Positions 4 through 63,900 of a stretch of 64,000 bases of DNA are shown in pieces; position 1 is the first letter of the stretch, and every line of letters starts with the position of its first letter. Origin of the DNA: a virus. The position numbers were made by a program, and so were the translations under genes. Below the pieces are notes generated by a model that was not told where the DNA came from, searched no databases, and saw nothing but the letters and a program-made list of their open reading frames with translations. The stretch lies in the IMG/VR virus record IMGVR_UViG_3300032291_002550, positions 436 through 64,435 of that record. The stretch is one strand, 5' to 3'.

Positions 4-1644
<1,641 letters not shown>

Positions 1645-32513: not shown

Positions 32514-32547
32514 CAAAAAAAAAATAACTTGCAAGTTATTTTAAATA

Positions 32548-32843: not shown

Positions 32844-32935
32844 AGTCAGGGGGTAATATAGGCAGCTACCCATCCGGAGTGGGGTGAGTTAAGAAGTGGG
32901 TTTCTTAAATGCAGGTTCGAATCCTGCCCTGACTG
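32844..32935 (+). ncRNA. Atypical tRNA-like element (92 nt), paralogous to the 32548..32668 element
   Basis: Same acceptor agtcagg/cctgact, and T-arm gcagg-ttcgaat-cctgc. The interior holds a 7-bp hairpin ttaagaa-gtgggt-ttcttaa and a possible tccggag loop, but no clean cloverleaf. Confidence 0.35.
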
Positions 32936-32949
32936 CAAAAATTAAAAGT

Positions 32950-47342: not shown

Positions 47343-48308
47343 ATGGCAATAATAAATAAGATTTTAAAAACGACGAATTCGTTAAACATTAATGATTCGA
47401 CAAAAAAGAAAATATCATTTTCGCAATATTCAAAGTGGGCAAAATGTCCTAGAAGCTGGAAACTTAGTTACATTGATAAAATAAAGGTATTTAAGCCATC
47501 GATGGCTCTCACGTTCGGAACTTCATTCCACGAAACTCTTCAACATTATCTTAAAGTACTTTATGATGAATCTGTTAAAAAAGCGGATGGAATAAATCTT
47601 CATGAAATGCTTCAAGAACAAATGATGAATAACTATGCATTAGATGTTATGAATAATAATAATGTACATTTTTCTAATCCTGAAGAAATAAAGGAATATT
47701 GGAATGATGGATGTGAAATATTAGATTATATCCGTAAACATCGTTTAGAGTATTTTTCTACTAAAGGAATGGAACTTGTTGGAATTGAACTTCCTTTATT
47801 AATTCAAGCTTCTGAAACCAATGAAAATGTAATGTATCTCGGCTATTTAGATGTAGTAATGTATGATAAGGTCTTAGATAAGATTATTATATACGATATT
47901 AAAACATCTACTAAAGGATGGACAGATAAAGAAAAGAAAGATAAGATTAAAACATCTCAAGTAATCTTATATAAAAAATACTTTTCAGAACTATTAGATT
48001 TCCCGATAGATAAAATTAACGTAATATTTTGGATTGTAAGAAGAAAGATATGGGAGAACCCGGATAATCCATTTATTAGAACAAAGCGCATACAAGAATT
48101 TATTCCTACTGCGGGTTCGAAAACATTAAAAGACGTAACTCGTAATGTTAATACATTTATTTCGAGCTGTTTTAATAAAGATGGAAGTTATAATAATGAA
48201 GCAACTTATCCAGCAATAAAAGGCGTGGATTCTGATCACTGCCGTTGGTGCGAATACAAAAATCACGAATCATGTCCAGCATCAGAACGTATAACAGCAT
48301 TAAATTAA
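47343..48308 (+). CDS. PD-(D/E)xK nuclease of the RecB/Cas4 family with a C-terminal Fe-S cysteine cluster
   Basis: GYLDVVMYD...IYDIKTSTK (D...D-x-K core). C-terminal CRWCEYKNHESC plus an upstream Cys (Cas4-like 4Cys). Confidence 0.6.
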   Translation: MAIINKILKTTNSLNINDSTKKKISFSQYSKWAKCPRSWKLSYIDKIKVFKPSMALTFGTSFHETLQHYLKVLYDESVKKADGINLHEMLQEQMMNNYALDVMNNNNVHFSNPEEIKEYWNDGCEILDYIRKHRLEYFSTKGMELVGIELPLLIQASETNENVMYLGYLDVVMYDKVLDKIIIYDIKTSTKGWTDKEKKDKIKTSQVILYKKYFSELLDFPIDKINVIFWIVRRKIWENPDNPFIRTKRIQEFIPTAGSKTLKDVTRNVNTFISSCFNKDGSYNNEATYPAIKGVDSDHCRWCEYKNHESCPASERITALN

Positions 48309-48317
48309 TAAAAAAGG

Positions 48318-48360
48318 TTGGAAATATGAAATGTATTCATTATCTTTAAGTATAATAAAT
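48318..48360 (+). promoter_or_regulatory. Conserved intergenic element, copy 6
   Basis: ttggaaatatgaaatgtattcattatctttaagtataataaat. Mini-ORF MKCIHYL*. Confidence 0.6.
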
Positions 48361-48600
48361 ATGACAATAAAAGAAAAAGAAATTGTAGAACAAGCTGAAA
48401 ATATTGTAAAAAAGTTTAATAAAATGTATCCAGTTGGAAGTATAGTAATGCACAGAGATAATAATATAAATGGAGTTAATTTTATAGAAAAAAAGGTAAA
48501 ATCAAAAGCATTTATTAGCGAAAGATTTGGTCCTTGTGTTTATTTCGAAGGTACGATTATATCTTCAATTGAAGAAGGTTATGTATTTTACAATAACTAA
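48361..48600 (+). CDS. Small hypothetical protein. Start corrected to 48361
   Basis: MTIKEKEIVEQ... directly after the element. Confidence 0.45.
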   Translation: MTIKEKEIVEQAENIVKKFNKMYPVGSIVMHRDNNINGVNFIEKKVKSKAFISERFGPCVYFEGTIISSIEEGYVFYNN

Positions 48601-48716
48601 ACGAATTTTAAAACGCTAACTACTAGCAAGTTAAAAAATAAATAAACTTTTATTTTGGTAATACGATTAGTAATACTATTTTTGAGGCAGATAATAAGAA
48701 AATAAACAATTTAAAC

Positions 48717-49259
48717 ATGGAATTAACAACTAAACACTTAGCAGCTTATTTGCCTTATGGGTTGAAAGTGTCAAATAGTATAAATTTTGCGGACTTTGGA
48801 ATATGTCAAAATACTACTGAATTACTTCAAGGATATAGTTTTGGCAACGTTATAACAGATAAAGACGAGTTTGGAATAGAATACTGCATATTACATTTGA
48901 GACCACTATCAGACCTGACAAAAGAGATAACTATTAATGGTGAAACTTTTGTGCCGATGCTAGAACTATTGAAAATTGCGATTAATGATTTTGATGATAA
49001 TGAAGGTGAAATAAATGCTGGAATGATTACCGAATGGGAGTTACATGATTTAAACATCACAGCATATTTAAATGAAGAATTAGTATGTAAATTATTATAC
49101 AATAAATCAAAAATTAAATTTACTTTTATATCTCCACAAGATTTATGGTGGTCATGCTCTTATAGTTTAATGGAAAAACTATTAGAATGGCACTTCGATA
49201 TTTTTGGACTTCTTGAAAATAATTTAGCAATTAATATTAACGAAATAAACAACTTATAA
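48717..49259 (+). CDS. Hypothetical protein
   Basis: 180-aa ORF. Confidence 0.45.
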   Translation: MELTTKHLAAYLPYGLKVSNSINFADFGICQNTTELLQGYSFGNVITDKDEFGIEYCILHLRPLSDLTKEITINGETFVPMLELLKIAINDFDDNEGEINAGMITEWELHDLNITAYLNEELVCKLLYNKSKIKFTFISPQDLWWSCSYSLMEKLLEWHFDIFGLLENNLAININEINNL

Positions 49260-49261
49260 CA

Positions 49262-50080
49262 ATGAACTACAAAATACGCATAACAGCAGAGAACCAAGCT
49301 ATTATCAAGAGAATAGCAGATGAAAATGAAATGAACCCAAATGAGTTTAAGTTTAATAGCCCTAATCCTATTTATCATATTGAAAATGGTGAGTTTACAT
49401 TTTATCCTCAAGACCCCAAAGAAACAAACGATTACACCGAACTAACCACCGAACAATTCGTTCAAATGTTCGACAAAAAAGAAACCGAACTAGACAAATG
49501 GCTAAAGGAAACTAAGGATAAGAATTTGAGCGAAATGGAGATTTATAAATTATTGTTTAGCCAAAAAGAATGTCCTGACAATATTTACATAGATTTAAAA
49601 AATAAATTTAGTGTCAATAGTCAAAAAGAGTTATCGGAATTTTTATTCAACCAATGGAACAATCCAACCGAAGAAAGTCCGAAAGTTGAAACAGAATGGC
49701 AGCCAAAAAGAGGGGATAGAGTGTTGGTGTTTGATGATTGGGACGAGCCTAAAGAAAGAATTTATTTAACATATTCAAAAGGTGAACGTTATCCATATAG
49801 AGTTGTAAGTGTAGGTACCGAGGACAAATTCAATAAAAATGAATTATTTGAAAGTTGCGCTTATCAACACATGAAACCACTACCAATAGAACAGCCCAAA
49901 GAACCCAACTTTAAAAGTAAGTTTGAAGCAACTATTGAGTTGATTGAAAATGAAATTAAAGCATTAGAAAACAAAAGAGATTATGCTGCAAAAGATAAGC
50001 TATATCAAATAGCTAGTGGATTAGTTTCAGAAATTGCACAAGCAACTAAACTGTTAAATAAAATTAAAGAACTAAAATGA
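49262..50080 (+). CDS. Hypothetical protein
   Basis: 272-aa ORF. Confidence 0.45.
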   Translation: MNYKIRITAENQAIIKRIADENEMNPNEFKFNSPNPIYHIENGEFTFYPQDPKETNDYTELTTEQFVQMFDKKETELDKWLKETKDKNLSEMEIYKLLFSQKECPDNIYIDLKNKFSVNSQKELSEFLFNQWNNPTEESPKVETEWQPKRGDRVLVFDDWDEPKERIYLTYSKGERYPYRVVSVGTEDKFNKNELFESCAYQHMKPLPIEQPKEPNFKSKFEATIELIENEIKALENKRDYAAKDKLYQIASGLVSEIAQATKLLNKIKELK

Positions 50081-50194
50081 AACCTGCACATAGAAGATAT
50101 AATCGAATATTTACAAAAATAAATCCAGAAGAATGTAAATTTCATATACATACTTTAGTTTATTATGGAATTAAGATTTGGAAGCAAACATTAA

Positions 50195-50659
50195 ATGTTA
50201 AATTTAAAAAGAAACGATATGATAGAATCTCCAACTAAAATATTAAAAATTGGGGTAACTGGAGATATTATTTATGAAAATGCTAGAAAGATTAAAGAAA
50301 CATTGTTTCAATTAAAACAAAATCTTAAAGGGCAAGAATTTATTGTATATTCTTTAGGAGGTAAGCACGGAGCAGATAAATATATTAAAAAATATTGCTT
50401 AGAGCTTAATATTCCATATAAAGAATATACGCCTTTATTTATCCCAGCAACATTATATTCAGTTTATCCTCCAGAAATGCATAATCAAAAATGGCATCCA
50501 GCAATTGCAGATCGCCATATACGTAATTTCTTAAAAGCATGTAAAAAATTTATTGTTTTTATTAACAAAGATGAAGTATCAGAAAAGTTTAGTTTGAAGC
50601 TTATAAAATCTCAAACAACAAAACTAAAAAATCCGGCCGTATTTATTAACGAGATTTAA
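50195..50659 (+). CDS. Hypothetical protein, possibly SLOG/DUF2493-like
   Basis: GVTGD...SLGGKHGADKYIKKY resembles the GGxxGAD motif of phage SLOG proteins. Weak. Confidence 0.4.
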   Translation: MLNLKRNDMIESPTKILKIGVTGDIIYENARKIKETLFQLKQNLKGQEFIVYSLGGKHGADKYIKKYCLELNIPYKEYTPLFIPATLYSVYPPEMHNQKWHPAIADRHIRNFLKACKKFIVFINKDEVSEKFSLKLIKSQTTKLKNPAVFINEI

Positions 50660-51315: not shown

Positions 51316-51363
51316 ATGAAGAAAAAGAAAATTCTTTTCCTGTGTGATGACCCCAGATTTTAA
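51316..51363 (+). pseudogene. Mini-ORF (15 aa) mimicking the N-terminus of the glycosyltransferase downstream of HEG3: direct-repeat copy 1
   Basis: MKKKKILFLCDDPRF*, preceded by aagttATG. It recurs as ...EKKKILFLCDDP* at 52437-52511 and resembles MAREIILGTCHVF of ORF 52542. Confidence 0.4.
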
Positions 51364-51399
51364 TTTCCGACGATCCGAGATATTTATATTAAATATCGT

Positions 51400-52425
51400 A
51401 TGGAATCATCAAATAATTTTATCAAATGTGCTATATGCGATTCATTAATGCAGTCAAGAATTAATGGGTCGCACTTAAAAACACATAACATATCTATAAC
51501 AGAATATTTGATTAAGTATCCGTTTGCAGAAACGGGGTCTTATATATCATCAACTTTTAAATGTCAGATCTGTAACACTGATATTGAAAATAAAAGTTCA
51601 GTTAAGATAAAACATTTAAAAGATCATGGTTATTCTATAGATGAATATAATATACAGTACTTAAAACGTCTTTGCCAATGTGGATGTAATGGCATAGCAA
51701 CATATTCATATGCTAGACATAAGTATAACAAGTATATTGAAGGTCATGACATCACATCATGGAATACCGGATTAACTAAAGAAACACATGACTCTTTAAA
51801 GAGGGTATCAGAAGCTAGAAAAAGAACAAAAGGTACATATACAGATGAACAAAAATTAAAAATCTCTGAGAAAACTAAATTATCATGGAAAGAACATCCA
51901 GAATCTAAATTAAAGATGGTGAAATCTTATAAAGAGACTATGATTAAAAAATATGGAGTAGATAATTTTAGTAAAACACCAGAATTTCTAGAAAAGTTTA
52001 AAAATACATCTTTAAACCGATATGGAGTAGAATATCCTAATCAAGACCCTGAAATATATGAACGTTCATGTAAAGGCAGAAAATATTATAAAGATTATAT
52101 ATTACCATCAGGTAAAAAGATACGAATTCAAGGATATGAGGGATATGCTTTAGATATACTATTAAATTCATATCATGAAGATGATATATTAACAAAAAAA
52201 TCTGATATGCCAATAGTATGGTATGAATTTGAAAATAAAAGGCGCAGATATTACCCAGATATTTACATACCATCACAAAATCTAATAATTGAAGTTAAAT
52301 CTACATACACATATAATTTAGAGACTGCTCAGATACATTCTAAAATAAACTCTTTGAAAGATATGGGATTTAATACTAATATTTGGATTATCGATAAAAA
52401 AATAATATATTCAATTATAAAATAA
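51400..52425 (+). CDS. Homing endonuclease (HEG3): zinc-finger-like N-terminus, KYGVxN repeats and a C-terminal PD-(D/E)xK nuclease
   Basis: CAICD...HLKTH and CQICN...HLKDH pairs. Repeats KKYGVDNFSKTPEF / NRYGVEYPNQDPE like HEG2. C-terminal YYPDIYIPSQNLIIEVKSTY (PD...EVK). Confidence 0.65.
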   Translation: MESSNNFIKCAICDSLMQSRINGSHLKTHNISITEYLIKYPFAETGSYISSTFKCQICNTDIENKSSVKIKHLKDHGYSIDEYNIQYLKRLCQCGCNGIATYSYARHKYNKYIEGHDITSWNTGLTKETHDSLKRVSEARKRTKGTYTDEQKLKISEKTKLSWKEHPESKLKMVKSYKETMIKKYGVDNFSKTPEFLEKFKNTSLNRYGVEYPNQDPEIYERSCKGRKYYKDYILPSGKKIRIQGYEGYALDILLNSYHEDDILTKKSDMPIVWYEFENKRRRYYPDIYIPSQNLIIEVKSTYTYNLETAQIHSKINSLKDMGFNTNIWIIDKKIIYSIIK

Positions 52426-52541: not shown

Positions 52542-53867
52542 ATGGCAAGAGAAATTATCCTAGGCACTTGTCATGTATTTGATTATGTGATTGTCGGTGG
52601 CGCATTAAAACATCCAGAAGAAGGTCAAATAATTGACTTATCTCAATCAGTTAAGAAAGATACTGGTATTGATGCTAATGTTAAAATTTATCCTGTATCT
52701 GGTTATGGTACTCAAGAATTAGTACGTCATTTAATCTCTACAGAATCTCCGGATGTATTATTACATTTTACAGACCCTAGATATTGGACATGGTTGTATC
52801 AAATGGAAAATGAAATACGTCAAAGAATTCCAATTACTTACTTAAATATTTGGGACTGTCCACCACCCCCAATGTATAATAAACCTTATTATAAATCATG
52901 TGATTTATTAATGAATATTTCGAAGCAAACTTACGGAATTGTTCATAAGGTATTAGAAGGAGAAAATTATGAAGATTGGCAAATTACCTATGTTCCGCAC
53001 GGAATAAACGACTCACATTTCTTTCCAATATCAAAAGACTCAGACACATATAAAAGTGTCGTAGACTTAAGAAAATCATTCTTAAAGGGTAAGAAAAATA
53101 AAGATGTAATTCCTCAATTTGTATTTTTATTTAATTCTAGAAACATAAGAAGAAAACAAACAGCAGATATTATATTAGCATATAAAATGTTCTGCGATAA
53201 ACTTTCGAAATCAGAAGCAATGAAATGCGTTCTTGTTCTTCATACTCAACCAGTTGATGAAAATGGAACAAACTTATTAGAGGTTATTGAAACTTTATGT
53301 CCAGAATATAACGTTACTTTTACAGATAAATCATTTAATGTTCATGAAATGAATATACTTTATAACTCTTCAGATGTTTTAATTAATATTTCAAGTAATG
53401 AAGGATGGGGATTATCTGTAACAGAAGCTATAATGACTGGTAAAAATGTTATCGTAAATATGACTGGCGGTCTTCAAGATCAAGTTGGATTAATGAAAGA
53501 CGATGGCACATTAGTTACTAAAGAAGATTATAAAGATAAAGAATGGCATTCAAATCATGATGGAAGATATAACAAATGGGGTTCTTGGGCAATACCAATT
53601 ATTCCGAGCAATCGTTCTATTCAAGGGTCTATTCCAACTCCTTATATATTTGACGATCGTGTAAAGATTGAAGACTTAATGAATGCTATGCTGAAATGGT
53701 ATAATACTAATGAAGAAGAAAGAATTCATTCAGGAATAAAAGGTCGTCAATATCTTATTGATAACAGAATGAATGCAAAAGGAATGTGTGAGAATGTTAT
53801 AAAAGACATTACAACTTGCTTAGAAAATTTCGAGCCTAAAGAAAGATATTCAATTATTAAATTATAA
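52542..53867 (+). CDS. Glycosyltransferase (GT-B, GT4-like)
   Basis: C-terminal NISSNEGWGLSVTEAIMTGKNVIV matches the GT-B E-x7-E / EGFGL-type motif. 441 aa. Confidence 0.65.
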   Translation: MAREIILGTCHVFDYVIVGGALKHPEEGQIIDLSQSVKKDTGIDANVKIYPVSGYGTQELVRHLISTESPDVLLHFTDPRYWTWLYQMENEIRQRIPITYLNIWDCPPPPMYNKPYYKSCDLLMNISKQTYGIVHKVLEGENYEDWQITYVPHGINDSHFFPISKDSDTYKSVVDLRKSFLKGKKNKDVIPQFVFLFNSRNIRRKQTADIILAYKMFCDKLSKSEAMKCVLVLHTQPVDENGTNLLEVIETLCPEYNVTFTDKSFNVHEMNILYNSSDVLINISSNEGWGLSVTEAIMTGKNVIVNMTGGLQDQVGLMKDDGTLVTKEDYKDKEWHSNHDGRYNKWGSWAIPIIPSNRSIQGSIPTPYIFDDRVKIEDLMNAMLKWYNTNEEERIHSGIKGRQYLIDNRMNAKGMCENVIKDITTCLENFEPKERYSIIKL

Positions 53868-53880
53868 AATCAAAATAAAT

Positions 53881-54300
53881 ATGTTACATAGAATCATCAA
53901 TTGGATTGTAAGTCCATTCAAAAAGAAAGAAGAAGTAGTAGAAGTACCTACTACATTTACATTAACTAACTCAGTTCCATTATCAGAAACTACAAAGAAA
54001 CAGATTAGAGAAGATCTTATTGAAGCTGTGAAAGAGTTTAAAGAAAAACATTCTGCTGATATAGATACTTTACCGTTATCTAGAGTTTCAGCAGAAGCTA
54101 AAGAAAAGATTGCTGAAGTAATTAAAAGCGACCTTAAGGAACAAATGGAAGTTTATCCAATAACAGAAGAAGTTACTATTAATCATGAAGTAACCGTTAC
54201 AGAAACTCCAAAAACAAAAAAGAAACGTTATTATAAAAAGAAACCAAAGGTTACTAATAACGAATCTACAGTATCAAATACTAAAAAGAGTTCTAAATAA
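53881..54300 (+). CDS. Lys/Glu-rich hypothetical protein
   Basis: 139 aa with a KKKRYYKKKPK tail. Confidence 0.4.
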   Translation: MLHRIINWIVSPFKKKEEVVEVPTTFTLTNSVPLSETTKKQIREDLIEAVKEFKEKHSADIDTLPLSRVSAEAKEKIAEVIKSDLKEQMEVYPITEEVTINHEVTVTETPKTKKKRYYKKKPKVTNNESTVSNTKKSSK

Positions 54301-54302
54301 AA

Positions 54303-55625
54303 ATGAAAAAGACAGTCGTGCTTCAGGCATCGGTAGCTACGGCAAGTGGCTACGGTGCTAGATCTAGAGATATAGCAAAGGCTCTTATTGAAAATCCGGA
54401 TTATGATGTAAAAATTATCCCTACGAGATGGGGAGATACTCCGCAGAATTTCTTAAACGAGCAAGACCCCATTCATAAAGAAATTCTTAAGAGAATGGTA
54501 AAGCAAGGAGAACAGCTTCAACAACCAGATACATATATTCAAATTACAGTACCAAATGAATTTCAAAAGGTAGGTTTACGTAAGTCTATAGGTATTACTG
54601 CTGGAATGGAAACTACATTAGTAGACCCGTCATGGTTAGAAGGTAATAATCGTATGGACCAAGTACTTTGTTCTTCAAAGCATTCTGCGGATGTAATGAA
54701 ATCAAGTAAGTATGATAAGATGGACCAAAATACCCGTCAAAAAGTTGGAGAACTTACCACAGAAAAAGAAGTAGATGTATTGTTTGAAGGAATAGATTTT
54801 AATACTTATCGTAAAGTAGATTCAATTCATAAGTCTATTAATGATATTATGAATGAAATAAACAATAAGTTTTGTTTCTTAGTGGTTGGTCATTGGTTAC
54901 CTGGTCAAATGTGGGAAGATAGAAAAAATATCGGAGGTACTATTTATACATTCTTAGATACATTTAAGAATAAACAAAATGCTCCAGCATTATTACTTAA
55001 GATAAGTTGCGGAAGTTATTCTGAAATGGATCGTTTTGAAATATCTAAACGCGTTAATCAAATTAAAAAGATGTTTGATGATACAGCAACAAGATTACCA
55101 GATGTTTATTTAGTTCACGGAGATTTTACAGATGATGAAATGAATTCATTATATAATCATCCTAAAGTAAAAGCAATGATATCTATGACTAAAGGAGAAG
55201 GATTCGGAAGACCGTTAGCAGAATTTGCTATGACAGGTAAACCAATTATTGTTTCTCATTATTCTGGTCATAAAGATTTTCTTCCTCAAGAAATGGTAAT
55301 GTATATTCCAGGTGAAATGCGTAATGTACATTCTTCAGCAGTCGTTCAAAATATGATTCTTCCAGAGTCGCAATGGTTCATGCCAAACCCGATGGTAGCA
55401 GGAAGATATATGATTGATACATTTGAAGATTATAAATCTAAACTAGAGGTTTCAAGAAAGCTACCTAAATACTTAAAAGATAACTTCTCATATGAAAAGA
55501 TGAAAGAAAATCTTTATAAGTTTATTGATGCTCCAGTTAAGGAAATACAAAAGCCTCAGATGCAGCAAATTAAATTGCCATCACTTAAAAAAATCGAACT
55601 ACCTAAAATAAAAAAAGTAGAATAA
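54303..55625 (+). CDS. Glycosyltransferase (GT-B, GT4-like)
   Basis: SMTKGEGFGRPLAEFAMTGKPIIVS motif. 440 aa. Confidence 0.65.
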   Translation: MKKTVVLQASVATASGYGARSRDIAKALIENPDYDVKIIPTRWGDTPQNFLNEQDPIHKEILKRMVKQGEQLQQPDTYIQITVPNEFQKVGLRKSIGITAGMETTLVDPSWLEGNNRMDQVLCSSKHSADVMKSSKYDKMDQNTRQKVGELTTEKEVDVLFEGIDFNTYRKVDSIHKSINDIMNEINNKFCFLVVGHWLPGQMWEDRKNIGGTIYTFLDTFKNKQNAPALLLKISCGSYSEMDRFEISKRVNQIKKMFDDTATRLPDVYLVHGDFTDDEMNSLYNHPKVKAMISMTKGEGFGRPLAEFAMTGKPIIVSHYSGHKDFLPQEMVMYIPGEMRNVHSSAVVQNMILPESQWFMPNPMVAGRYMIDTFEDYKSKLEVSRKLPKYLKDNFSYEKMKENLYKFIDAPVKEIQKPQMQQIKLPSLKKIELPKIKKVE

Positions 55626-55631
55626 CGTTAT

Positions 55632-56147
55632 ATGTCATTGCAAATTAAATCATTACTTCTTCGAGAAGAATTAGAGCATCTTAATGAATTAACTCTAGGA
55701 ACTACAAAACCTTTTATTATATCAAAGGCATTAACACCAATTCCAGGAGATAAAGGATACTTTGAAGTATTTTATGCTCCGATTGAAGGGATAAATGATG
55801 ACAGTTCAATACCTGAGGTAATCGTTACATTTGCACATGTGAGAGATAATAAGTATGAGATGGGATTTACAATAAATGGCAGAGATACTCAAGCATTTAA
55901 AGCACCTATTTCATACTATCTTCGAATTATTAAAACAGTGACCTTAATAATTACAAAGTTTATACATAAAATTAACCCAGAAGCTATACGTCTTAGAGGC
56001 ATGGATAAAGAAAATGTATATAAGCCCGGTCAAAAAGATCGAATATACTTTTCATTTATGCAACAAGAAGGTCCGAAACTAGGATATCGTGTTGCGCAAG
56101 ATGGAAATGGATATCTAATAATGATAAAAAATAAAATAACTAATTAA
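55632..56147 (+). CDS. Hypothetical protein
   Basis: 171-aa ORF. Confidence 0.45.
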   Translation: MSLQIKSLLLREELEHLNELTLGTTKPFIISKALTPIPGDKGYFEVFYAPIEGINDDSSIPEVIVTFAHVRDNKYEMGFTINGRDTQAFKAPISYYLRIIKTVTLIITKFIHKINPEAIRLRGMDKENVYKPGQKDRIYFSFMQQEGPKLGYRVAQDGNGYLIMIKNKITN

Positions 56148-56148
56148 A

Positions 56149-56652
56149 ATGATTGAGCCAAACTTCACAGAAAAAGTTTTATGTCCGTGTAAGAACGGAG
56201 GTAATGCATTTAGAGATTCATTCGATAAGATTGAAGTTTCTTTATGCAGTACCTGCGGGTTAATGACCACTTCTCAATATCAAGAAGATTCGGAACACGT
56301 TGAACAAATTAAAGCATTATGCCCTCCGGAGATGATGTTTATTAGCATCTTAGACGAAAATGGATTTAGATGGTTTCCATCAGTTCTTCCATTCTCTAAA
56401 AAAGGTGTTATATATGCAGAACCTCGAGGTAAAGATGATTTTAAATGGATGGTTGCTCCTGTAGTTAAAGTTGCAGAAGCAGAAGGGCATTTATATATGA
56501 ACCCTGAAACAAATAAATCATATGAAAATAGAATTGCTACGGAAAAAGCAACTATCTTTGATAAGAATGAATTTTTAAAAGCATTAGAAATGTCAGATAT
56601 TCCAGAATCAAAAGCATTATTACAAAGAATTAATTTAATCTTTAATAAATAA
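56149..56652 (+). CDS. Hypothetical protein
   Basis: 167-aa ORF. Confidence 0.45.
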   Translation: MIEPNFTEKVLCPCKNGGNAFRDSFDKIEVSLCSTCGLMTTSQYQEDSEHVEQIKALCPPEMMFISILDENGFRWFPSVLPFSKKGVIYAEPRGKDDFKWMVAPVVKVAEAEGHLYMNPETNKSYENRIATEKATIFDKNEFLKALEMSDIPESKALLQRINLIFNK

Positions 56653-56653
56653 T

Positions 56654-56992
56654 ATGACTTCTCAAGAATTTACAATATGGCTAAAAGGTTTCTTAGATGC
56701 CATGACTCAAATTGAAAATCATCATATATCAAAGATTAAAGATACTCTAAATAAAGTATCTGATACCCCTGAATATACAATTGCCCCTGATATATCTAAT
56801 GAAAAATTAGTTCCGTATCATACTATATGTAGTTGTAGTCCAGCAAATGGTGGTAGTGGTATTTGTGGATGTGTTATGCCAAATAAGTTAGTATCTAGAG
56901 ACAGAAAATCTAATATCTATACTTCTACATCTGAAAATATACCTTTTAACTGGCAATATAAAGAAACAAATAAGACACTTCTTCATGATTAA
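56654..56992 (+). CDS. Hypothetical protein
   Basis: 112-aa ORF with a Cys/Gly-rich segment CSCSPANGGSGICGC. Confidence 0.4.
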   Translation: MTSQEFTIWLKGFLDAMTQIENHHISKIKDTLNKVSDTPEYTIAPDISNEKLVPYHTICSCSPANGGSGICGCVMPNKLVSRDRKSNIYTSTSENIPFNWQYKETNKTLLHD

Positions 56993-58073
56993 ATTAAAAG
57001 ACTTAATAAAAGAATCTAATGACGTGCATGAATATGGTTGCGTTATGCTTTACTTTAACTTTCCTGAAATAAATAAAATACATGATATGATTAATCCTGA
57101 TGATGTATACACAGAAGAAGGAGATAATAGTTATGGTTTAGAAACAGAACCTCATACAACGTTACTATATGGACTTCACCCGGAAGTAACTCTTAATAAT
57201 ATTAAAGAAGTTTTAAGTAAGTTTACATATTCTCCATGTACCGTATATAATACTTCATTATTTAATAATGAAAAATATGATGTATTAAAGTTTGATGTTA
57301 AAGGAGATAATCTTCATAAAACTAATGAAGCTTTAAAGGAATACCCTTATACTTCTAACTTTCCTAAATATCATCCACATTTAACAATTGGATATCTTAA
57401 TCCAAAAATGGGACAAGCATATGTTGATATACTTAAGAAATCTATACCTAAAGATGGATATCAATTAGTTCCGCAATATGCAGTATATTCAATGCCAGAC
57501 GGCACGAAGCATAAATTAAAAATTAATGTTAACGGTAATATTAACGAGTCTACTAGATGGATTGAATTAGCATTTATTGAAGATACTAAATTACTTAAAT
57601 CAAAAAAAAAGATAACGGAGTATTATAATAGCGCTAATCGGTTATTATTTGAACATCTAAACCCAAAGCTAGCATATCCATATACAGAAAAGACAATGTC
57701 TGATGGTCAAATGATGTGGAGTGTCGAAAAACAAGATAATGATCCTCAGTTCCTTGTAACTCTAAAAACTAAACCTAACTTAAAATATTGGATATTAGAT
57801 TTTTACTTTTTCGAAACAGGATATAGCGCTCAAAAAGGATTGACAGGTACACATTATCTAGATACATTAACAAAGATTATTAGAGATAACATAATTCCAT
57901 ATTTTAAAACACAGCAAGATAAAAATATTTTATTCTTTAATGCATATTCTGGAGATGATCATACAACAACTAGAAAAGTAGTATTTCAAAAAATACTTCA
58001 AAAGTTCATAAATACAGATGATTTTGAAATTTCTATTAAAGATAATGATTTTTTAATCTATAAACATACTTAA
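56985..58073 (+). CDS. 2H phosphoesterase-like (LigT-type) N-terminal domain protein
   Basis: Two H-x-T-x motifs: EPHTTLLYG and HPHLTIGYL. Confidence 0.5.
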   Translation: MIKLKDLIKESNDVHEYGCVMLYFNFPEINKIHDMINPDDVYTEEGDNSYGLETEPHTTLLYGLHPEVTLNNIKEVLSKFTYSPCTVYNTSLFNNEKYDVLKFDVKGDNLHKTNEALKEYPYTSNFPKYHPHLTIGYLNPKMGQAYVDILKKSIPKDGYQLVPQYAVYSMPDGTKHKLKINVNGNINESTRWIELAFIEDTKLLKSKKKITEYYNSANRLLFEHLNPKLAYPYTEKTMSDGQMMWSVEKQDNDPQFLVTLKTKPNLKYWILDFYFFETGYSAQKGLTGTHYLDTLTKIIRDNIIPYFKTQQDKNILFFNAYSGDDHTTTRKVVFQKILQKFINTDDFEISIKDNDFLIYKHT

Positions 58074-58077
58074 GCTA

Positions 58078-58719
58078 ATGCAAATTAATATAACATACGG
58101 AATTACGGTTTGTAATGAAGACGAAGAATTAGATCGTCTTCTTACACATCTTATTCCTTTAATAGATGATGAAGATGAAATTCTTATACTTAGAGATATT
58201 ACTAAAACTAACAGTAAAGTAACTAAGGTATTAGAAGCTCATACTACCCATTTTCCTAATCGTATACGAACAATCGAACGATTACTTAATAAAGATTTTG
58301 CTGCATTTAAAAATGCACTTATAGAAGAAGCAAAAGGTGATTATTTATTTCAAATCGATGCCGATGAAGTACCAAATGAATTCTTAATAGAAAATATAAA
58401 AGCAGTTATTGATATTAACAAAGAAGTAGATGTATTTTATATTCCGAGAGTTAATAAAGTAACGGGCATTACTAAGGAACATATAACTAAATGGCGTTGG
58501 CATATTGATGGTAATGAAAGAATAAATTTTCCAGATTTACAAATGCGCTTATTTAAATTAGATAAAGAAATAAAGTGGAAGAATAAAGTTCATGAAGTCT
58601 TGGATAATTACAAAATAACCACTATATTACCTTATGAAGAATATGAAGACTTTTGTCTGTATCATATTAAGGATATTAAAAAACAAGAAGAACAAAATAA
58701 ATTTTACGAGACAATATAA
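58078..58719 (+). CDS. GT-A fold (GT2-like) glycosyltransferase
   Basis: ITYGITVCNEDEELDRLL N-terminus and the DxD-like QIDADEVP. Confidence 0.5.
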   Translation: MQINITYGITVCNEDEELDRLLTHLIPLIDDEDEILILRDITKTNSKVTKVLEAHTTHFPNRIRTIERLLNKDFAAFKNALIEEAKGDYLFQIDADEVPNEFLIENIKAVIDINKEVDVFYIPRVNKVTGITKEHITKWRWHIDGNERINFPDLQMRLFKLDKEIKWKNKVHEVLDNYKITTILPYEEYEDFCLYHIKDIKKQEEQNKFYETI

Positions 58720-60581
58720 TGAATATTATAATACCTATAGGAGGAATTGGACAAAGATTTAAAGACGAAGGATATTTAATGCCTAAACCTTTAATTAATG
58801 TTTTAGGTAAACCTATGATTAATCGTGTTATTGATAGTTTAAATGTAACAGATGATGATTGTATTTATATAGTATATAATAATCAATTGAAAGAATTTAA
58901 TTTTGAAAGTTTAATTAAATTTTATTTTCCAAAAAAGTCTATTAAATTTATTGCATTAAATCATTTAACTAAAGGAGCAGCTGAAACAGTATTATATTGC
59001 CTAAATACATTATCTAATGTAGAGTTAAATAAAAATTTTTTATTAGTAGATTGTGATACTTTCTATACAGATGATATTATTACGTTATATAAAGAATCTG
59101 AATATAAGAATTTAATATATTATTTTGAAGATATTACAACTGACCCAATATTTTCTTATATTAAAATAGACTCAGATAATAAAATTCTCGACATAAAAGA
59201 AAAAGAAAAGATATCTGATTATGCAAACACTGGGGCGTATGGATTTGCTCATGGTCATTTACTTAAAACGTATTGTGAAGATATTTTAAAATTAAATACT
59301 TCAGAATTATATATTTCTTATATTTACGATAAGTTTTTAAAGGATAATATTGAAGTGTATGGTACGAAAATAACTAACTTTAATTGTGTCGGAACACCTT
59401 TACAACTTAAAATTTATTGTAACAAATACAAAAGCAACTCAGAGAAGCTTCGTATATGCTTTGACTTGGACAATACATTAGTATCATATCCACAAATACA
59501 TGGAGATTATTCTAGTGTACTACCTATTACAAAAAATATTAACTTTGCTAAGTTTTTAAAATCATTAGGCCATACAATTATAATACATACGGCTAGAAGA
59601 ATGAAAACTCATACCGGTAATGTTGGAGGTGTAGTTGCTGATATCGGTAAAGTTACTATTGATACGTTAGAGAAGTTTGAAATTCCATATGACGAACTTT
59701 ATTTTGGCAAACCATATGCTAATTTTTATATAGATGATCTGGGAGTTAATCCAATGTTATCATTAGATAAGGGATTAGGAATATTTAATACAATTACAGC
59801 CCCTCGAGAATTTAATAAAGTAGAATTTAATGGCTCTACAATGACTAAATACACTAATAATGAAGGAGAAGTTTATTGGTATCAAAATATACCTAAAAAA
59901 ATAGAATATCTGTTTCCAAAAGTATATAGTTCCGAAAATAATAAATTAATTTTAGAGAATATTGATGGTGTTACATATTCATATCTTTATACTCATAAAG
60001 AATTATCTTTAACTGATTTACATATATTATTAGATACATTAACGAGCGTATATGAACTTAAATCTAATGATGATATAAATATATATTCTAACTATTTTTA
60101 TAAGTTATCGAACAGATATTATTCTAATAAGCATATTTATAAAGATATACCAGAATCTAAAGAATTATTTATTTTAATTTCTAATCAATTAAAAGATTAT
60201 GAAAATAAAAATCTAGGTAAACAAAGAATAATACATGGAGATTTAGTATTTACGAATATTATAAAGACTAAAAATTCTTTAAAACTTATCGATATGCGTG
60301 GTAAAGTTGGAGATGTATTATCAATTGAAGGTGATATGTATTATGATTATGCTAAAATATATCAATCAATAATTGGATATGATTACATCTTAAATGATAT
60401 TGAAATGGATAACGTATATATGAATCAGTTTTTAGTAGAATTCGAATCGCACTTTTATAAAGATGAATTAAAATATATTAAACTTATCACGGCTAGTTTA
60501 TTATTTTCATTAATACCATTACATTCAGACACATCGGAGAAATTTGATAAATACTTTACCTTAATTAAAACCTTACTATGA
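58719..60581 (+). CDS. Multidomain sugar-activation enzyme: sugar-phosphate nucleotidyltransferase, HAD phosphatase and APH/choline-kinase-like kinase
   Basis: N-terminal IIPIGGIGQRF...KPLINVLGKPMI (NTP-transferase G-loop). Central CFDLDNTLV (HAD motif I). C-terminal IHGDLVFTNII...DMRG (Brenner HGDxxxxN kinase motif). Confidence 0.6.
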   Translation: MNIIIPIGGIGQRFKDEGYLMPKPLINVLGKPMINRVIDSLNVTDDDCIYIVYNNQLKEFNFESLIKFYFPKKSIKFIALNHLTKGAAETVLYCLNTLSNVELNKNFLLVDCDTFYTDDIITLYKESEYKNLIYYFEDITTDPIFSYIKIDSDNKILDIKEKEKISDYANTGAYGFAHGHLLKTYCEDILKLNTSELYISYIYDKFLKDNIEVYGTKITNFNCVGTPLQLKIYCNKYKSNSEKLRICFDLDNTLVSYPQIHGDYSSVLPITKNINFAKFLKSLGHTIIIHTARRMKTHTGNVGGVVADIGKVTIDTLEKFEIPYDELYFGKPYANFYIDDLGVNPMLSLDKGLGIFNTITAPREFNKVEFNGSTMTKYTNNEGEVYWYQNIPKKIEYLFPKVYSSENNKLILENIDGVTYSYLYTHKELSLTDLHILLDTLTSVYELKSNDDINIYSNYFYKLSNRYYSNKHIYKDIPESKELFILISNQLKDYENKNLGKQRIIHGDLVFTNIIKTKNSLKLIDMRGKVGDVLSIEGDMYYDYAKIYQSIIGYDYILNDIEMDNVYMNQFLVEFESHFYKDELKYIKLITASLLFSLIPLHSDTSEKFDKYFTLIKTLL

Positions 60582-61627
60582 CATATAAACAAGAAATAAT
60601 AAGTCTTGACTCAAATTATAACAGACAATATTATCATATCTTAGATAATGTATATGTTAAGCAACTAGATACGCCTGAGTATATTGAAGTGGTTCATGAT
60701 TCTAAAAAAGTAGTTGCTGGAATAGATAATGGAGCTCAGTCAGATGGAAATCCAAATACAATATATGATGATATTATTACAAAAGATAATATTATTGAAG
60801 ATGAATATATTAATGATGATGTATTTTTATTCTTTGATCAAGCAGGAGTAAATTATATACATTTCTTCTTTAATATGTTTTGTAAATGTTTTTATTATGA
60901 TAAGATTATTGAAACTAATCCAAATATCAAATTTGGTATTTTAGAAAGTTTTTATCAAGACTCAGGAAATTATTCGTTTATAAAAGATTGGTTAAATCTA
61001 TATTATAAAGATCTTAATGTAATTGTATTTAAAAAAGATATACAATATAAAGTTAAGAATTTAATACTTCCTAATGGATTTTATGCATTTCCTGAAGGTA
61101 GTGGATATAATAATATCTTACATAAAATAATTGAAACGGCATCTAAAATAGAACCAATACAAACTAAATCAAATAGCGTATATATTTCTCGTCAAGATAC
61201 AATTAAACGAGGCTGGTATCATAACAGAATACTTACAAACGAATTAGAACTTATTGATAAATTAAAATCAGAACTTAATTATGATATTGTAGAATTAATG
61301 GATTATGATATTATAGGTAAGATTCAAATTTTTAAATCATATAAGTATATTCTTCAGCAAAGTAGCGCATCTAATATGAATATATTATTTTCAGGAGAAG
61401 ATAATACAAATATCATATTAGCTCATCCATTAATGGAAGGATGGCTAGGATATCATTCTGCCAATTTTGCAAAAGCATCATTATCTAATTTAATAATGTT
61501 ATCTGATGGAGGTACATTGCTACCAGAATTAAAAGACCCGGCTGTTACAGATCCAAATAATTGCCCTTGGGAATTATCAAATATTGACGGAATTATAGAA
61601 GTATTAAAAACACAAATACATGAATAA
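60578..61627 (+). CDS. Hypothetical protein (in sugar island)
   Basis: 349-aa ORF. Confidence 0.45.
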   Translation: MTYKQEIISLDSNYNRQYYHILDNVYVKQLDTPEYIEVVHDSKKVVAGIDNGAQSDGNPNTIYDDIITKDNIIEDEYINDDVFLFFDQAGVNYIHFFFNMFCKCFYYDKIIETNPNIKFGILESFYQDSGNYSFIKDWLNLYYKDLNVIVFKKDIQYKVKNLILPNGFYAFPEGSGYNNILHKIIETASKIEPIQTKSNSVYISRQDTIKRGWYHNRILTNELELIDKLKSELNYDIVELMDYDIIGKIQIFKSYKYILQQSSASNMNILFSGEDNTNIILAHPLMEGWLGYHSANFAKASLSNLIMLSDGGTLLPELKDPAVTDPNNCPWELSNIDGIIEVLKTQIHE

Positions 61628-62567
61628 GAAAAAAATAGCTTGTATGCTGTTTAATTTATCAACAGCCAGTTTATCATATGATGAATTAAAAAATTATGAT
61701 AATGATACATTTTTTGCCCCGAATGCTGTTAATAGCTTTAAAAAATGGAATCCTGAAGTGGATACATTTTATTTAGATGACAATGGATTTAAAGAAATGT
61801 TAAAAGACTTAAATATTACAGAATTTTATGATAATGTAGGAGTAGTACGTATACATGTAATAAAAGAGTTAATGAAGCAGCGTGGTTATACTAAATGTAT
61901 TATGTTAGGTATTGATACATTTACATGTGCACGTTTAGATGAGTTTCTTGACGATGATGTTACAGATATGATTTGTTCAGCAGGACCTCCATATTCATTT
62001 ATCAAAACAGATTATTGGTCACCTCCAATTGTAGAATTTAATTATAATAATCAAATACATCATGATGTAGCATTTATTAATGCCGATGTAGTATGTATTA
62101 ATAATGCAGAAATGGCAGAATTATTATATAATAAAAGTATTGAATATTGGAGTAATCATGCAGAACAAGGAGGAATGAATTGGTGTTATAGCAATCAAGA
62201 TTCATTAGGAGTTAAAGTAAGTATCGTTGATTTTCCATATCTAACTTCAAAAGTATCATATAATGTACGATCTAAAGGAGATGCTTGTGGCGGATATCAA
62301 ATGATAAAAGGTAAAGTATTATCTGGGCGCGGAGGGCAAGTAATTTCAAATATTTATCCCACTTCAGAATATTCTGTTATAAATAATAAATTATTTACGA
62401 AAGACGGGAAACAAATTAAAGTATTTCATTACGCAGAAGGATTAGGATTTCGTACAGACAAAGATGAACAGACCTATGAAGAAGCAGTGTATGAAATGAA
62501 AACAATGTGGTTTAATAAAGAAACGATAGATTTTTTAGAAAAAGAATGCGGTTGTAATTTTAAATAG
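61620..62567 (+). CDS. Hypothetical protein (in sugar island)
   Basis: 315-aa ORF. Confidence 0.45.
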   Translation: MNKKKIACMLFNLSTASLSYDELKNYDNDTFFAPNAVNSFKKWNPEVDTFYLDDNGFKEMLKDLNITEFYDNVGVVRIHVIKELMKQRGYTKCIMLGIDTFTCARLDEFLDDDVTDMICSAGPPYSFIKTDYWSPPIVEFNYNNQIHHDVAFINADVVCINNAEMAELLYNKSIEYWSNHAEQGGMNWCYSNQDSLGVKVSIVDFPYLTSKVSYNVRSKGDACGGYQMIKGKVLSGRGGQVISNIYPTSEYSVINNKLFTKDGKQIKVFHYAEGLGFRTDKDEQTYEEAVYEMKTMWFNKETIDFLEKECGCNFK

Positions 62568-62586
62568 TATTTATTATATTATTGTT

Positions 62587-63900
62587 ATGAAAGAAATATT
62601 AGAATTAGTAGAAAAGTACATTCAAGAAAAACACTCTAAAAAGAGTTGGGAAGCAGGTAAAGATTGGGTTCAGTATGCTGGCCCTTATTTCAACTCTCGA
62701 GAATATGTTGCAGCAGTTAAATCTTTATTAGGAGAATGGTTAGTATTAGGAGCAGATGCTATTAAGTTTGAAACTAAATTTCCTAAACTATTTGGTAAGC
62801 AATATGGATTGTTAACTAATAGTGGATCTAGTGCAAACTTACTTATGATGTTAGCAATGACATCTAAAAGAGGTTTAAATCTTCCAAAAGGAACAAAAGT
62901 AATTACTCCTATTGCAGGATTTCCAACAACGATCAATCCAATAATACAAGTAGGATTTACTCCTATCTTTGTTGATATTGAGCTAGAGACTTTAAACTTA
63001 GATTTAGATGGTGTTGAAAAAGCTTGTATAGAAAATCCAGATGCAAAAATTATTACCTTTGCTCATGTATTAGGCAATCCACCTGATATGAATAGATTAA
63101 TGGATATTGTTAAAAAATATAACTTAATCCTATTAGAAGATTGTTGTGATGCATTAGGTTCAACATTTGAAGGTAAAGCATTAGGATCTTTTGGAGATTT
63201 AGCTAGCTGCTCATTCTATCCAGCACATCATATGACTATTGGTGAAGGTGGATTTGTAGCGTGTAAAGATGAAAGTACAGAGAGAATTATAAGAAGCTTT
63301 AGAGAATGGGGAAGAGGATGTTATTGTGTTGGAAAGCAAAACTTATTAGAGTGTGGAACTTGTAACAATAGATTCAGTAACTGGCTTCCTTCATTGCCAA
63401 ATGATTTATTCGATCATAAATACACTTACGAAGAGATTGGTTATAATTTAAAGCCAATTGAAATGCAAGCTGCTATTGGATTAGTTCAAATGGAAAAACT
63501 AAAGGAGATTGGTGAAAAGAGAAAAGAAAATTATAAGAACCTATTTGCAGCTTTTAGTAAGTATGAACAATACTTTCATTTACATAAAGCTCAACAAGGT
63601 GCAGATGTAGATTGGTTTGCATTTCCAATTACACTAAGAGATGATGCTCCATTCAAGCGTTCAGACATTTGTCAGTTTTTTGAAGCCAATAAAATACAAA
63701 CTAGACCATACTTTGCAGGTAATATTATGTTACAACCAGCTTATGCAGGAATGATGGATCCAGAAAAAGTAGTTAAAGATTATCCAGTTGCTAGAAAGGT
63801 AACTACAGATACATTCTTTTTAGGAACATCTCCGGTAATTGATAAAGCAAAGACAGATTATATTGAAACAATTTTAGATAAGTTTATACAAACTTTATGA
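62587..63900 (+). CDS. DegT/DnrJ/EryC1 family enzyme of the E1 (RfbH/DdhC, CDP-4-keto-6-deoxyglucose-3-dehydrase) type
   Basis: 437 aa. SFYPAHHMTIGEGGFV has His in place of the PLP-binding Lys, as in E1 dehydrases. GSSANLL. Cys cluster CYCVGKQNLLECGTC. Confidence 0.75.
   Translation: MKEILELVEKYIQEKHSKKSWEAGKDWVQYAGPYFNSREYVAAVKSLLGEWLVLGADAIKFETKFPKLFGKQYGLLTNSGSSANLLMMLAMTSKRGLNLPKGTKVITPIAGFPTTINPIIQVGFTPIFVDIELETLNLDLDGVEKACIENPDAKIITFAHVLGNPPDMNRLMDIVKKYNLILLEDCCDALGSTFEGKALGSFGDLASCSFYPAHHMTIGEGGFVACKDESTERIIRSFREWGRGCYCVGKQNLLECGTCNNRFSNWLPSLPNDLFDHKYTYEEIGYNLKPIEMQAAIGLVQMEKLKEIGEKRKENYKNLFAAFSKYEQYFHLHKAQQGADVDWFAFPITLRDDAPFKRSDICQFFEANKIQTRPYFAGNIMLQPAYAGMMDPEKVVKDYPVARKVTTDTFFLGTSPVIDKAKTDYIETILDKFIQTL

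Follow-up and report, generated by a model that had tools for sequence, protein, structure and literature searches.

Nucleoside diphosphate (NDP)-4-keto-6-deoxyhexose 3-dehydrases of the E1/RfbH type are described from Yersinia and Salmonella (AscC/DdhC), and their product can be elaborated further. In erwiniose synthesis, the thiamine diphosphate (ThDP) enzyme ErwE attaches a branch to C-4 of the E1 product, CDP-4-keto-3,6-dideoxyglucose, with a keto acid supplied by ErwI/ErwJ, and in yersiniose synthesis YerE branches the E1 product using pyruvate (PMC9306805). Chloroviruses, mimiviruses and mycobacteriophages glycosylate their virions by means of soluble virus-encoded glycosyltransferases (GTs) and rare-sugar pathways, which comprise a conserved part and a clade- or strain-specific part. 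Hypervariable regions rich in GT and deoxy-sugar genes occur in large aquatic myophages, namely pelagimyophages and cyanomyophages, where their function is untested (PMC7029224). Here we analysed positions 52,542 to 63,900 of a 64,000-nt segment of a large phage with a GC content of 29% (IMG/VR virus record IMGVR_UViG_3300032291_002550, positions 436 to 64,435; hereafter the window). This locus carries both a set of GT genes and an E1/RfbH dehydrase, and we tentatively read it as a system that glycosylates a phage-borne acceptor.

All 12 open reading frames (ORFs) of the block were found at the coordinates given in the original prediction, a reading of the window made from its letters, and all lie on the + strand. 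The functional category proposed there, deoxy-sugar synthesis and glycosylation, is correct. The block had been regarded as one island of about 11 kb; the genes are all present, but they form a composite of a conserved core (52.5–58.7 kb) and a hypervariable cassette that starts at 58,718, not one self-contained pathway (Table 1). To characterize relatives, 82 loci were drawn from viral contigs with RfbH and the second GT-B enzyme as queries. Their ORFs were clustered together with those of the window and of the two nearest sequenced phages by protein similarity, Flavobacterium phage vB_FspM_immuto (hereafter immuto) and Microcystis phage Mel-JY01, giving gene maps of 85 loci; L-numbers in this text are labels of relative contigs or loci. 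At the DNA level, a megablast search with the block as query gave no match among 50,697 phage records, and thus no close sequenced relative is present there.

The order nuclease, GT-B, GT-B, zinc-ribbon protein and GT2 is kept in ~70 loci at 40–50% identity, and that of the core itself (GT-B, GT-B, zinc-ribbon protein, GT2) in ~100 phage contigs, immuto and Mel-JY01. The core order recurs in some 30 contigs of metagenome-assembled genomes (MAGs), both marine and freshwater, which we regard as mis-binned phage DNA because their taxon labels are scattered and mutually incompatible. A genome scan did not find this order in any isolate genome, and the core proteins have homologues in viral or mis-binned contigs but none in isolate bacterial genomes. 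The core contains the two GT-B enzymes and the GT-A-like transferase named in the original prediction. Both GT-Bs are ~440 aa in length and GT4-like; the first is present in 71 of the first 85 loci (43–50% identity) and the second in 73, and the GT2 enzyme is present in 74. The second GT-B is 49.5% identical to 'glycosyltransferase RfaG' of immuto, and in the genome sets it was met only in mis-binned MAG contigs that keep an identical gene order. The best PDB sequence match of both GT-Bs is the chlorovirus GT B736L, which is weak in each case and, for the first GT-B, tied with TreT at 2e-7. The zinc-ribbon protein (150–170 aa in the loci) belongs to a family of 685 sequence clusters for which there is no Pfam model.

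The boundary of the cassette was mapped with contigs whose zinc-ribbon protein is 92–95% identical to that of the window. In blastn comparisons with two of these (L087 and L088), ~90% identity extends over 50.2–58.7 kb of the window and ends at 58,709–58,717, i.e. in the last codons of the GT2 gene; beyond this point, neither contig has any similarity to the window except for a 65% match to a different DegT gene. The GC content falls across the boundary from 0.29–0.33 to 0.23–0.27. The window continues with a fusion enzyme, a GT61 enzyme, a 315-aa protein (protein K) and RfbH, whereas in one near-identical contig the core is followed by GT11, a methyltransferase, GT10, GT6, an aminotransferase, an RmlD-like reductase and a PglD-like acetyltransferase, and in another by methyltransferases, GT7 and a HAD-nucleotidyltransferase. 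In total, 58 distinct eight-gene architectures follow GT2 among 74 loci, and in many loci a further GT2, together with a constant set of phage genes, closes the region on the right. Cassettes are therefore swapped by recombination even between ~90%-identical strains. The layout is that of an O-antigen or capsule cluster, with conserved flanks and a hypervariable, recombining, low-GC centre of sugar-nucleotide and GT genes; it differs from the bacterial clusters (Wzx/Wzy, ABC) in that the phage loci lack polytopic initiation and export proteins. Compared with the pelagimyophage and cyanomyophage regions, loci of the window type are anchored by a defined core with a breakpoint mapped to the base, and no interspersed tail-fibre genes were found in the stretches of the phage loci examined. 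A published 'moraphage' belongs to another lineage.

The island does not stop at 63,900, because an ORF starting at 63,897 runs off the window. Its 34 codons, MRPIVIYTYDFDIGVGGIKVMHKLCHMLNEMGYE, match the N-termini of a 280-aa family that follows RfbH or protein K in four loci (L003, L021, L065 and L082) and has no Pfam or NCBIfam match. Sequence past 64,000 was not recovered from viral and metagenome contigs by an exact look-up of RfbH, searches with protein K or DNA-pattern scans with the tail; exact look-ups of the fusion, GT61 and K proteins reached a 13.6-kb contig that ends inside RfbH.

The RfbH protein scores above the cutoff of the curated NCBIfam RfbH equivalog model (Table 1), matches Pfam DegT_DnrJ_EryC1 at 257 bits and aligns full-length to Yersinia E1 (PDB 3bcx, 6.6e-105). 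His214 corresponds to His220 of E1 (SFYPAHHMT in the window and SFYPAHHIT in 3bcx, compared with SFYPAKHIT in the H220K mutant, 3bb8). The Fe-S cysteines are conserved in the 3bcx alignment, i.e. C192/193, C251, C253 and C261 in numbering counted from that alignment (EDCCDALG and WGRGCYC...C), of which C193, C251, C253 and C261 correspond to the [2Fe-2S] ligands reported by Agnihotri et al. in 2004. Because a histidine replaces the lysine that binds pyridoxal phosphate (PLP) and the Fe-S cysteines are kept, this DegT-family protein is an E1/RfbH enzyme and not an aminotransferase. The original prediction had come to the same view from an AHH signature, and the alternative of a canonical lysine is excluded on alignment. 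ColD, the GDP-colitose enzyme, was also considered, as Gmd follows RfbH in some loci, and was disfavoured because the protein agrees better with E1, both in its model score and in its Fe-S cysteines; the ColD-type structure 2gms scores 1.9e-50 over a shorter alignment. The setting differs from that in Yersinia and Salmonella: a lytic phage encodes the enzyme, the locus has no lipid-carrier or export genes, and neither an E3 (AscD) reductase nor a glucose-1-phosphate cytidylyltransferase was recognized here. RfbH homologues are annotated in Synechococcus phages. In ~35 phage contigs, RfbH is 79–91% identical to that of the window, whereas their core GTs are only 43–50% identical, which suggests that the RfbH cassette has either spread horizontally in recent times or been under unusually strong constraint.

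The original prediction proposed a search for the pathway partners elsewhere in the genome. A Pfam scan of the window, which took in every ORF of at least 300 aa, revealed no 4,6-dehydratase or reductase; in relatives, the partners lie just downstream of RfbH. Short-chain dehydrogenase/reductase (SDR) enzymes are present there in 60 of the 61 RfbH loci with at least 8 kb of downstream sequence. The most frequent of these SDRs has dTDP-glucose 4,6-dehydratase as its nearest match (304 bits); Gmd is found in 26 loci. A ThDP enzyme, either acetolactate-synthase (ALS)/YerE-like or an E1 alpha/beta-like pair, is present in 43 of these 61 loci, and nine loci add a BphJ/BphI-like pair of acetaldehyde dehydrogenase and aldolase. 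Relatives therefore join RfbH with the enzymes of yersiniose and erwiniose synthesis, and the loci bearing BphJ/BphI have the gene set of the published ErwE/ErwI/ErwJ scheme (PMC9306805). In other cassettes, the partner of the ThDP enzyme is a PanB-like (ketopantoate-hydroxymethyltransferase-like) enzyme or an HpcH-type aldolase, combinations that are undescribed for branched sugars and suggest other branch donors. Judged by their gene content, the RfbH loci of relatives point to acyl-branched 3,6-dideoxyhexoses, sugars which to our knowledge have not been reported for any virus. Three loci with the same fusion-GT61 cassette (L022, L059 and L082) go on with RfbH, K, an SDR/dehydratase, a ThDP enzyme and a PanB-like enzyme; a dehydratase, a ThDP enzyme and a PanB-like enzyme are thus the best guess for what lies past 64,000. 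Most RfbH loci encode no nucleotidyltransferase (RfbH itself is present in all 81 loci recovered by it), and the RfbH branch therefore probably starts from a host NDP-glucose. The nucleotide may not be CDP, as the dehydratases of relatives are closer to the dTDP-glucose or GDP-mannose types.

The fusion enzyme combines the three domains assigned to it in the original prediction, with all catalytic motifs intact. Its nucleotidyltransferase domain matches NTP_transferase (PF00483) over residues 4–214 (42.3 bits; cutoff, 21.2 bits) and PDB 4evw at 1.4e-20, its PDB relatives include HddC (5xhw, 1e-9), and G9, G11, R13 and K23 of the GxGxR...K signature are invariant in the family. The HAD domain (residues 245–346) matches TIGR01689 at 1.4e-18 and PDB 1xpj at 2.5e-21; with 67 bits against a curated cutoff of 162 bits, it is related to, and not a member of, that subfamily. 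Its motifs I–IV are invariant (D249, D251 and T253 of DxDxT, T291, K331, D339 and D340). An equation with CrpP of Haemophilus influenzae Bcs3 was rejected, since motif I is degenerate in CrpP, which also possesses a cap domain. Sequence methods, including Pfam, gave no match for the C-terminal 265 residues, and their identity was settled by a fold search: the AlphaFold (AF2) model (pLDDT 93) was matched by Foldseek to ethanolamine kinase, choline kinase, APH(2'') and LicA with a probability of 1.00 and E values from 2.5e-7. The fold also matches maltose kinase. The HxDxxxxN loop and the following Asp are invariant (H506, D508, N513 and D525; H506-G-D508...N513).

The same activities occur in the heptose routes GmhA-HldE-GmhB and HddA-GmhB-HddC, in LicA-LicC and in AmgK-MurU. 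The fusion differs in having all three in one 620-aa chain, in a kinase of the APH/ChoK rather than the GHMP or ribokinase fold, and in a small, capless, TIGR01689-like HAD domain; no isomerase partner was found. By analogy with the heptose pathways, the enzyme most plausibly acts in the order kinase, phosphatase, nucleotidyl transfer. Its product would be used by the GT61 enzyme encoded next to it. The fusion is present in 11 loci, usually followed by GT61, which is present in nine of 10 distinct fusion-bearing architectures. A role as feeder of RfbH was rejected, because the fusion is absent from ~70 of the 81 RfbH loci and travels with GT61. HAD-kinase homologues beside a separate NTP_transferase are encoded by two long contigs (L085, 7267–9020; L086, 6768–8687) of giant-virus-like content; the first type of content comprises sulfotransferases and GT6, and the other contig has P9_TM, patatin and DEAD helicases. 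Protein K has no Pfam, NCBIfam or PHROG match; a glycogenin-2-like assignment was rejected, as the comparison of its family profile with PDB was not significant (E = 0.45).

Table 1. Features of the locus and of the remainder of the window
Feature	Position	Strand	Evidence and remarks
Core GT-B (GT4-like) glycosyltransferase 1	52542-53867	+	Glycos_transf_1, 41.8 bits (cutoff 26.4); PHROG 2170, 1.7e-21
ORF B, 139-aa K/E/T-rich protein	53881-54300	+	
Core GT-B glycosyltransferase 2	54303-55625	+	Glycos_transf_1, 23.4 bits (just below cutoff); PHROG 2170, 7e-17; conserved EGFGRP..E motif
ORF D, 171-aa protein	55632-56147	+	Dispensable passenger
Core zinc-ribbon protein	56149-56652	+	CPxC...CxxC and beta-rich domain; always between GT-B 2 and GT2
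ORF F, 112-aa Cys-rich protein	56654-56992	+	
Putative 2H phosphoesterase domain protein	56985-58073	+	2H domain at residues ~50-150 (Acb1 / 2',5'-ligase-like), followed by a C-terminal domain
Core GT2 (GT-A) glycosyltransferase	58078-58719	+	Glycos_transf_2, 40.5 bits (cutoff 23.3); conservation of the gene order ends with this gene
Left boundary of the hypervariable cassette	58709-58720		Recombination breakpoint; blastn against L087 and L088
Fusion enzyme, 620 aa	58719-60581	+	Nucleotidyltransferase (1-240), HAD phosphatase (245-350), choline/aminoglycoside-kinase-fold kinase (356-620)
GT61 glycosyltransferase	60578-61627	+	Pfam Glyco_transf_61, 43.5 bits (cutoff 27); in 12 loci
Protein K, 315 aa	61620-62567	+	Adjoins RfbH in 15 loci
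E1/RfbH NDP-4-keto-6-deoxyhexose 3-dehydrase	62587-63900	+	Pyridoxamine phosphate (PMP), [2Fe-2S] type; NCBIfam NF011936, 468 bits (cutoff 423)
Next cassette gene, first 34 codons	63897-64000	+	Cut by the window end
GroEL, full-length	28-1644		Cpn60_TCP1, 265 bits
Third GT-B	15056-16240		Glycos_transf_1, 27.8 bits
GTP cyclohydrolase I (FolE)	16216-16857		Start overlapped by the third GT-B gene
DUF7487+DUF559 endonuclease-like ORF	29590-30504		Overlaps the DNA ligase ORF
DNA ligase ORF	30464-31315		Begins with an intein-splicing remnant
tRNA-Pro	32441-32514		Normal
HAD_SAK_2 ('Swiss-army-knife RNA repair') paralogues, two	32896-33525 and 34351-34941		
Thymidylate synthase (ThyA), 409 aa	37330-38559		
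Cohesin and Por_Secre_tail protein, 625 aa	40509-42386		Type IX secretion C-terminal sorting
PA14-domain protein	45339-46472		6 kb upstream of the locus
PD-(D/E)XK nuclease	47343-48308	+	Pfam PDDEXK_1, 7.7e-16; left-hand synteny anchor, not a sugar gene
Homing-endonuclease-like gene	51400-52425	+	Pfam DUF7487, 5e-45; mobile insertion just upstream of the locus

These genes suggest the following scheme. RfbH would turn an NDP-4-keto-6-deoxyhexose into an NDP-4-keto-3,6-dideoxyhexose, its substrate being made from a host NDP-glucose by a dehydratase of RmlB-like type, the gene for which is expected just downstream, and a YerE/ErwE-like ThDP enzyme, present in relatives and probably here, would add a carbon branch at C-4 to yield yersiniose- or erwiniose-type sugars. 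Separately, the fusion would activate a second sugar or alcohol, and the neighbouring GT61 would transfer the product. The core GTs would attach the inner sugars and the cassette enzymes the strain-specific outer part, and the glycan would be built in the cytoplasm directly on an acceptor supplied by the phage. The likeliest acceptor would be a virion protein or several of them, a situation known from chloroviruses, mimiviruses and mycobacteriophages. Up to the sugar nucleotide, this mechanism is well grounded in homology.

The evidence bearing on the acceptor is as follows. A hydropathy scan found two or more hydrophobic segments in 3 of 1,433 locus ORFs (~85 loci), none of them in the window, and no initiating phosphoglycosyl transferase, flippase, polymerase or ABC transporter was present among the Pfam-scanned proteins of the loci. 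Since the loci encode almost no membrane proteins and have no lipid-carrier or export genes, the enzymes probably work in the cytoplasm. The core is common to phages reported on Flavobacterium and on Microcystis; being phage-specific and kept across phages whose hosts must differ, it favours a phage-borne acceptor, and as DNA is unlikely to be that acceptor (see below), a protein, most simply a virion protein, remains. The chlorovirus GT matches and the HAD-kinase homologues in giant-virus-like contigs may be weak echoes of viral glycosylation. Glycosylation of a phage acceptor, probably the virion, is the explanation that we prefer, tentatively and at somewhat less than an even chance. A fuller version of it, in which virions bear strain-specific, carrier-free glycans containing acyl-branched 3,6-dideoxyhexoses, with PanB- and HpcH-type enzymes providing branch donors and the resulting virion 'serotypes' being under diversifying selection, is conceivable and rather doubtful.

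Several observations weigh against virion glycosylation, and some of them favour its main rival, remodelling of the host surface. No E3-type or FNR-like reductase was recognized in the scanned cluster representatives. In the homologue SpnQ, E3 can be replaced by general cellular reductases. In this phage itself, the window ends before any partner of RfbH. The locus lies among replication and nucleotide-metabolism genes, its neighbours being the nuclease, small ORFs, the PA14 protein and replication genes; there is no capsid or tail neighbour. This differs from the arrangement in mycobacteriophages, in which GT genes are said, in work by Freeman et al. from 2023, to lie beside structural genes; giant viruses likewise lack such adjacency. 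We know of 3,6-dideoxy and acyl-branched hexoses only from bacterial lipopolysaccharide (LPS) and a few antibiotics, and the GT10, GT11 and GT25-like families of relatives are typical of LPS and lipooligosaccharide. O-antigen GTs are also soluble or peripheral, so that the shortage of membrane proteins still allows the use of host carriers and exporters. The literature on the similar pelagimyophage regions favours modification of the host O-chain (PMC7029224).

According to this rival, the phage enzymes act on host undecaprenyl-linked intermediates of LPS, capsule or O-glycans and use the host machinery for initiation, flipping and ligation, and the altered surface might, for example, block superinfection or the adsorption of progeny to debris. 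It is in keeping with the 3,6-dideoxy, branched and 6-deoxy sugars and with the GT10, GT11 and GT2 enzymes of relatives, which are typical of O-antigens, and the hypervariable LPS-gene regions of pelagimyophages and cyanomyophages have been read in this way (PMC7029224). The probable host also fits: because the phage encodes a cohesin protein sorted by the type IX secretion system (T9SS), which would be displayed on the surface of the infected cell, the sequence implies a host among the Bacteroidota, which are rich in surface glycans. As O-antigen GTs need no transmembrane segments and are themselves soluble, the absence of membrane proteins leaves room for this explanation. However, genes for an initiating phosphoglycosyl transferase, a flippase, a polymerase, a ligase or an ABC transporter and genes of the Gtr type are absent from the ~1,400 ORFs of ~85 loci, the core GTs are kept across widely differing hosts although host lipid-linked acceptors differ, and isolate bacterial genomes contain no homologues of the core proteins. 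We consider remodelling of the host envelope unlikely, and it is the most serious competitor of a phage-borne acceptor.

A further possibility is that the block is not a single system but a recombination hot spot that gathers unrelated auxiliary genes, which act independently, and some perhaps not at all; in one variant, they would serve other acceptors, such as the T9SS-sorted cohesin protein, host proteins or small molecules. Passengers without a sugar function do occur inside the block. The presence of ORFs B, D and F and of the 2H protein in the core varies, even between near-identical strains: ORF B is restricted to the closest relatives (L003, L083, L084 and L087-093), ORF D occurs in L088-L093 and is missing from L087, where window position 55625 joins straight to 56127, and relatives of ORF F (46% identity) are found in L011-13 and L017. 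Neither ORF B nor ORF D matched any family in Pfam and PHROG scans, and ORF F matched nothing significant. One of the 'several unknowns' of the original prediction, 60578–61627, is the GT61 gene. The 2H phosphoesterase-like protein listed there shows both HxTx motifs (HTTL and HLTI) and matches PHROG 755 at 6e-8, but all of its family scores are below their cutoffs (2_5_RNA_ligase2, 21.4 against 27 bits; Acb1, 20.6 against 27 bits; TIGR02258, 18 against 65.7 bits). It has an extra C-terminal domain of ~180 aa, whereas the version in L087 (10876–11433) has 185 aa and consists of the 2H domain alone. It is probably a passenger rather than a sugar gene, possibly an anti-defence gene riding in the locus.

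A homing endonuclease gene (HEG) adjoins the block as well. It had been thought to invade the island and in fact lies upstream of it; it is present in L087 and L091-093 and missing from the ~90%-identical contigs L089 and L090, which lack 51317–52395 of the window. The fusion-GT61 pair and RfbH, moreover, are inherited independently. These points are outweighed by the strict order of GT-B, GT-B, zinc-ribbon protein and GT2 in ~100 contigs, the enrichment of the variable region almost exclusively in sugar-nucleotide enzymes and GTs, the conserved right-hand GT2 that closes many loci and the coherent published pathways that can be read from the cassettes, and we regard a mere assemblage of unrelated genes as decidedly improbable.

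DNA hypermodification, an option raised in the original prediction, would have the GTs decorate hydroxymethyl- or hydroxy-pyrimidines or a 7-deazaguanine side chain and so block restriction. Like the T4 alpha- and beta-GTs and the arabinosyl-5hoC system, it would involve cytoplasmic phage GT-B enzymes and a conserved, phage-borne acceptor. The locus lies in the replication and nucleotide-metabolism region beside a nuclease gene, FolE, the first enzyme of 7-deazaguanine synthesis, adjoins a further GT-B in the window, and glycans of up to three sugars on DNA are known. The only ThyA homologue of the window, which has three insertions relative to Escherichia coli ThyA (approximately residues 88–116, 211–256 and 322–364), retains L143, C146, D169 and N177, i.e. 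the thymidylate-synthase state. As 5hm- and 5ho-pyrimidine synthases are marked by N177D with L143D/E, or by D169N (PMC13326640), it is not such a synthase. No hydroxymethylase or hydroxylase signature was found in this ThyA, and ORFs of <250 aa were only partly screened for a methyltransferase/TET route. In immuto, which has the same core genes, liquid chromatography-ultraviolet-mass spectrometry of the DNA gave dA, dC, dT and fdPreQ1 (324 Da, no sugar) replacing dG, with no other peak reported (PMC10516641). Given these canonical ThyA residues, the DNA of immuto without a glycosylated nucleoside and, in relatives, up to 8–10 GT genes with branched dideoxy-sugar pathways, far more than in T4-type glucosylation and beyond any known DNA glycan, DNA is a most improbable target.

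The remainder of the window is that of a large lytic phage genome. Every ORF in 47–64 kb lies on the + strand, packed tightly or overlapping, and the nuclease lies directly upstream of the core in 69 loci. In addition to GroEL, the window encodes a DnaB-type helicase, both ribonucleotide-reductase subunits, a family-B DNA polymerase, a clamp loader, a DNA ligase, a thymidylate synthase and the PD-(D/E)XK nuclease; immuto likewise carries a GroES/GroEL pair. Two further variable sites were noticed upstream of the locus. In the ~90%-identical contig L087, the slot of the PA14-domain protein (720–2378) is occupied by a 552-aa Laminin_G_3/lectin-like protein; this slot, the second variable one, is used by proteins of a carbohydrate-binding type. 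Another small variable spot, 48300–50233 (ORFs 48717–49259 and 49262–50080), lies between the nuclease and the locus and has unrelated small ORFs instead in L087, L089 and L090. The DNA ligase gene looks as if it were interrupted by an intein or HEG. ARAGORN reported an odd tRNA-like gene with a 2-base anticodon (32844–32936), which overlaps the start of the first HAD_SAK_2 gene.

Phage GTs, deoxysugar genes and hypervariable 'LPS-like' regions were already known. The new elements here are a defined core module that occurs very widely and whose breakpoint has been located to the base, O-antigen-like exchange of cassettes between near-identical strains, a tri-domain activation enzyme and the interpretation that the cassettes encode pathways to acyl-branched 3,6-dideoxyhexoses. 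The core and its breakpoint provide a handle for mining and comparing such loci in metagenomes. The cassettes are a source of enzymes for rare branched deoxysugars, including ThDP carboligases with new donor partners and a one-chain kinase-phosphatase-nucleotidyltransferase, and the cultured relative immuto makes the question of the target testable. If virions carry the glycan, the tailed phages that infect abundant bacteria of fresh and marine waters would possess sugar coats that vary and are encoded in a serotype-like manner, which would bear on phage-host recognition, grazing, particle stickiness in water and the immune recognition of therapeutic phages. Such a glycan might shield the virion or bait the glycan-binding outer-membrane receptors of Bacteroidota hosts.

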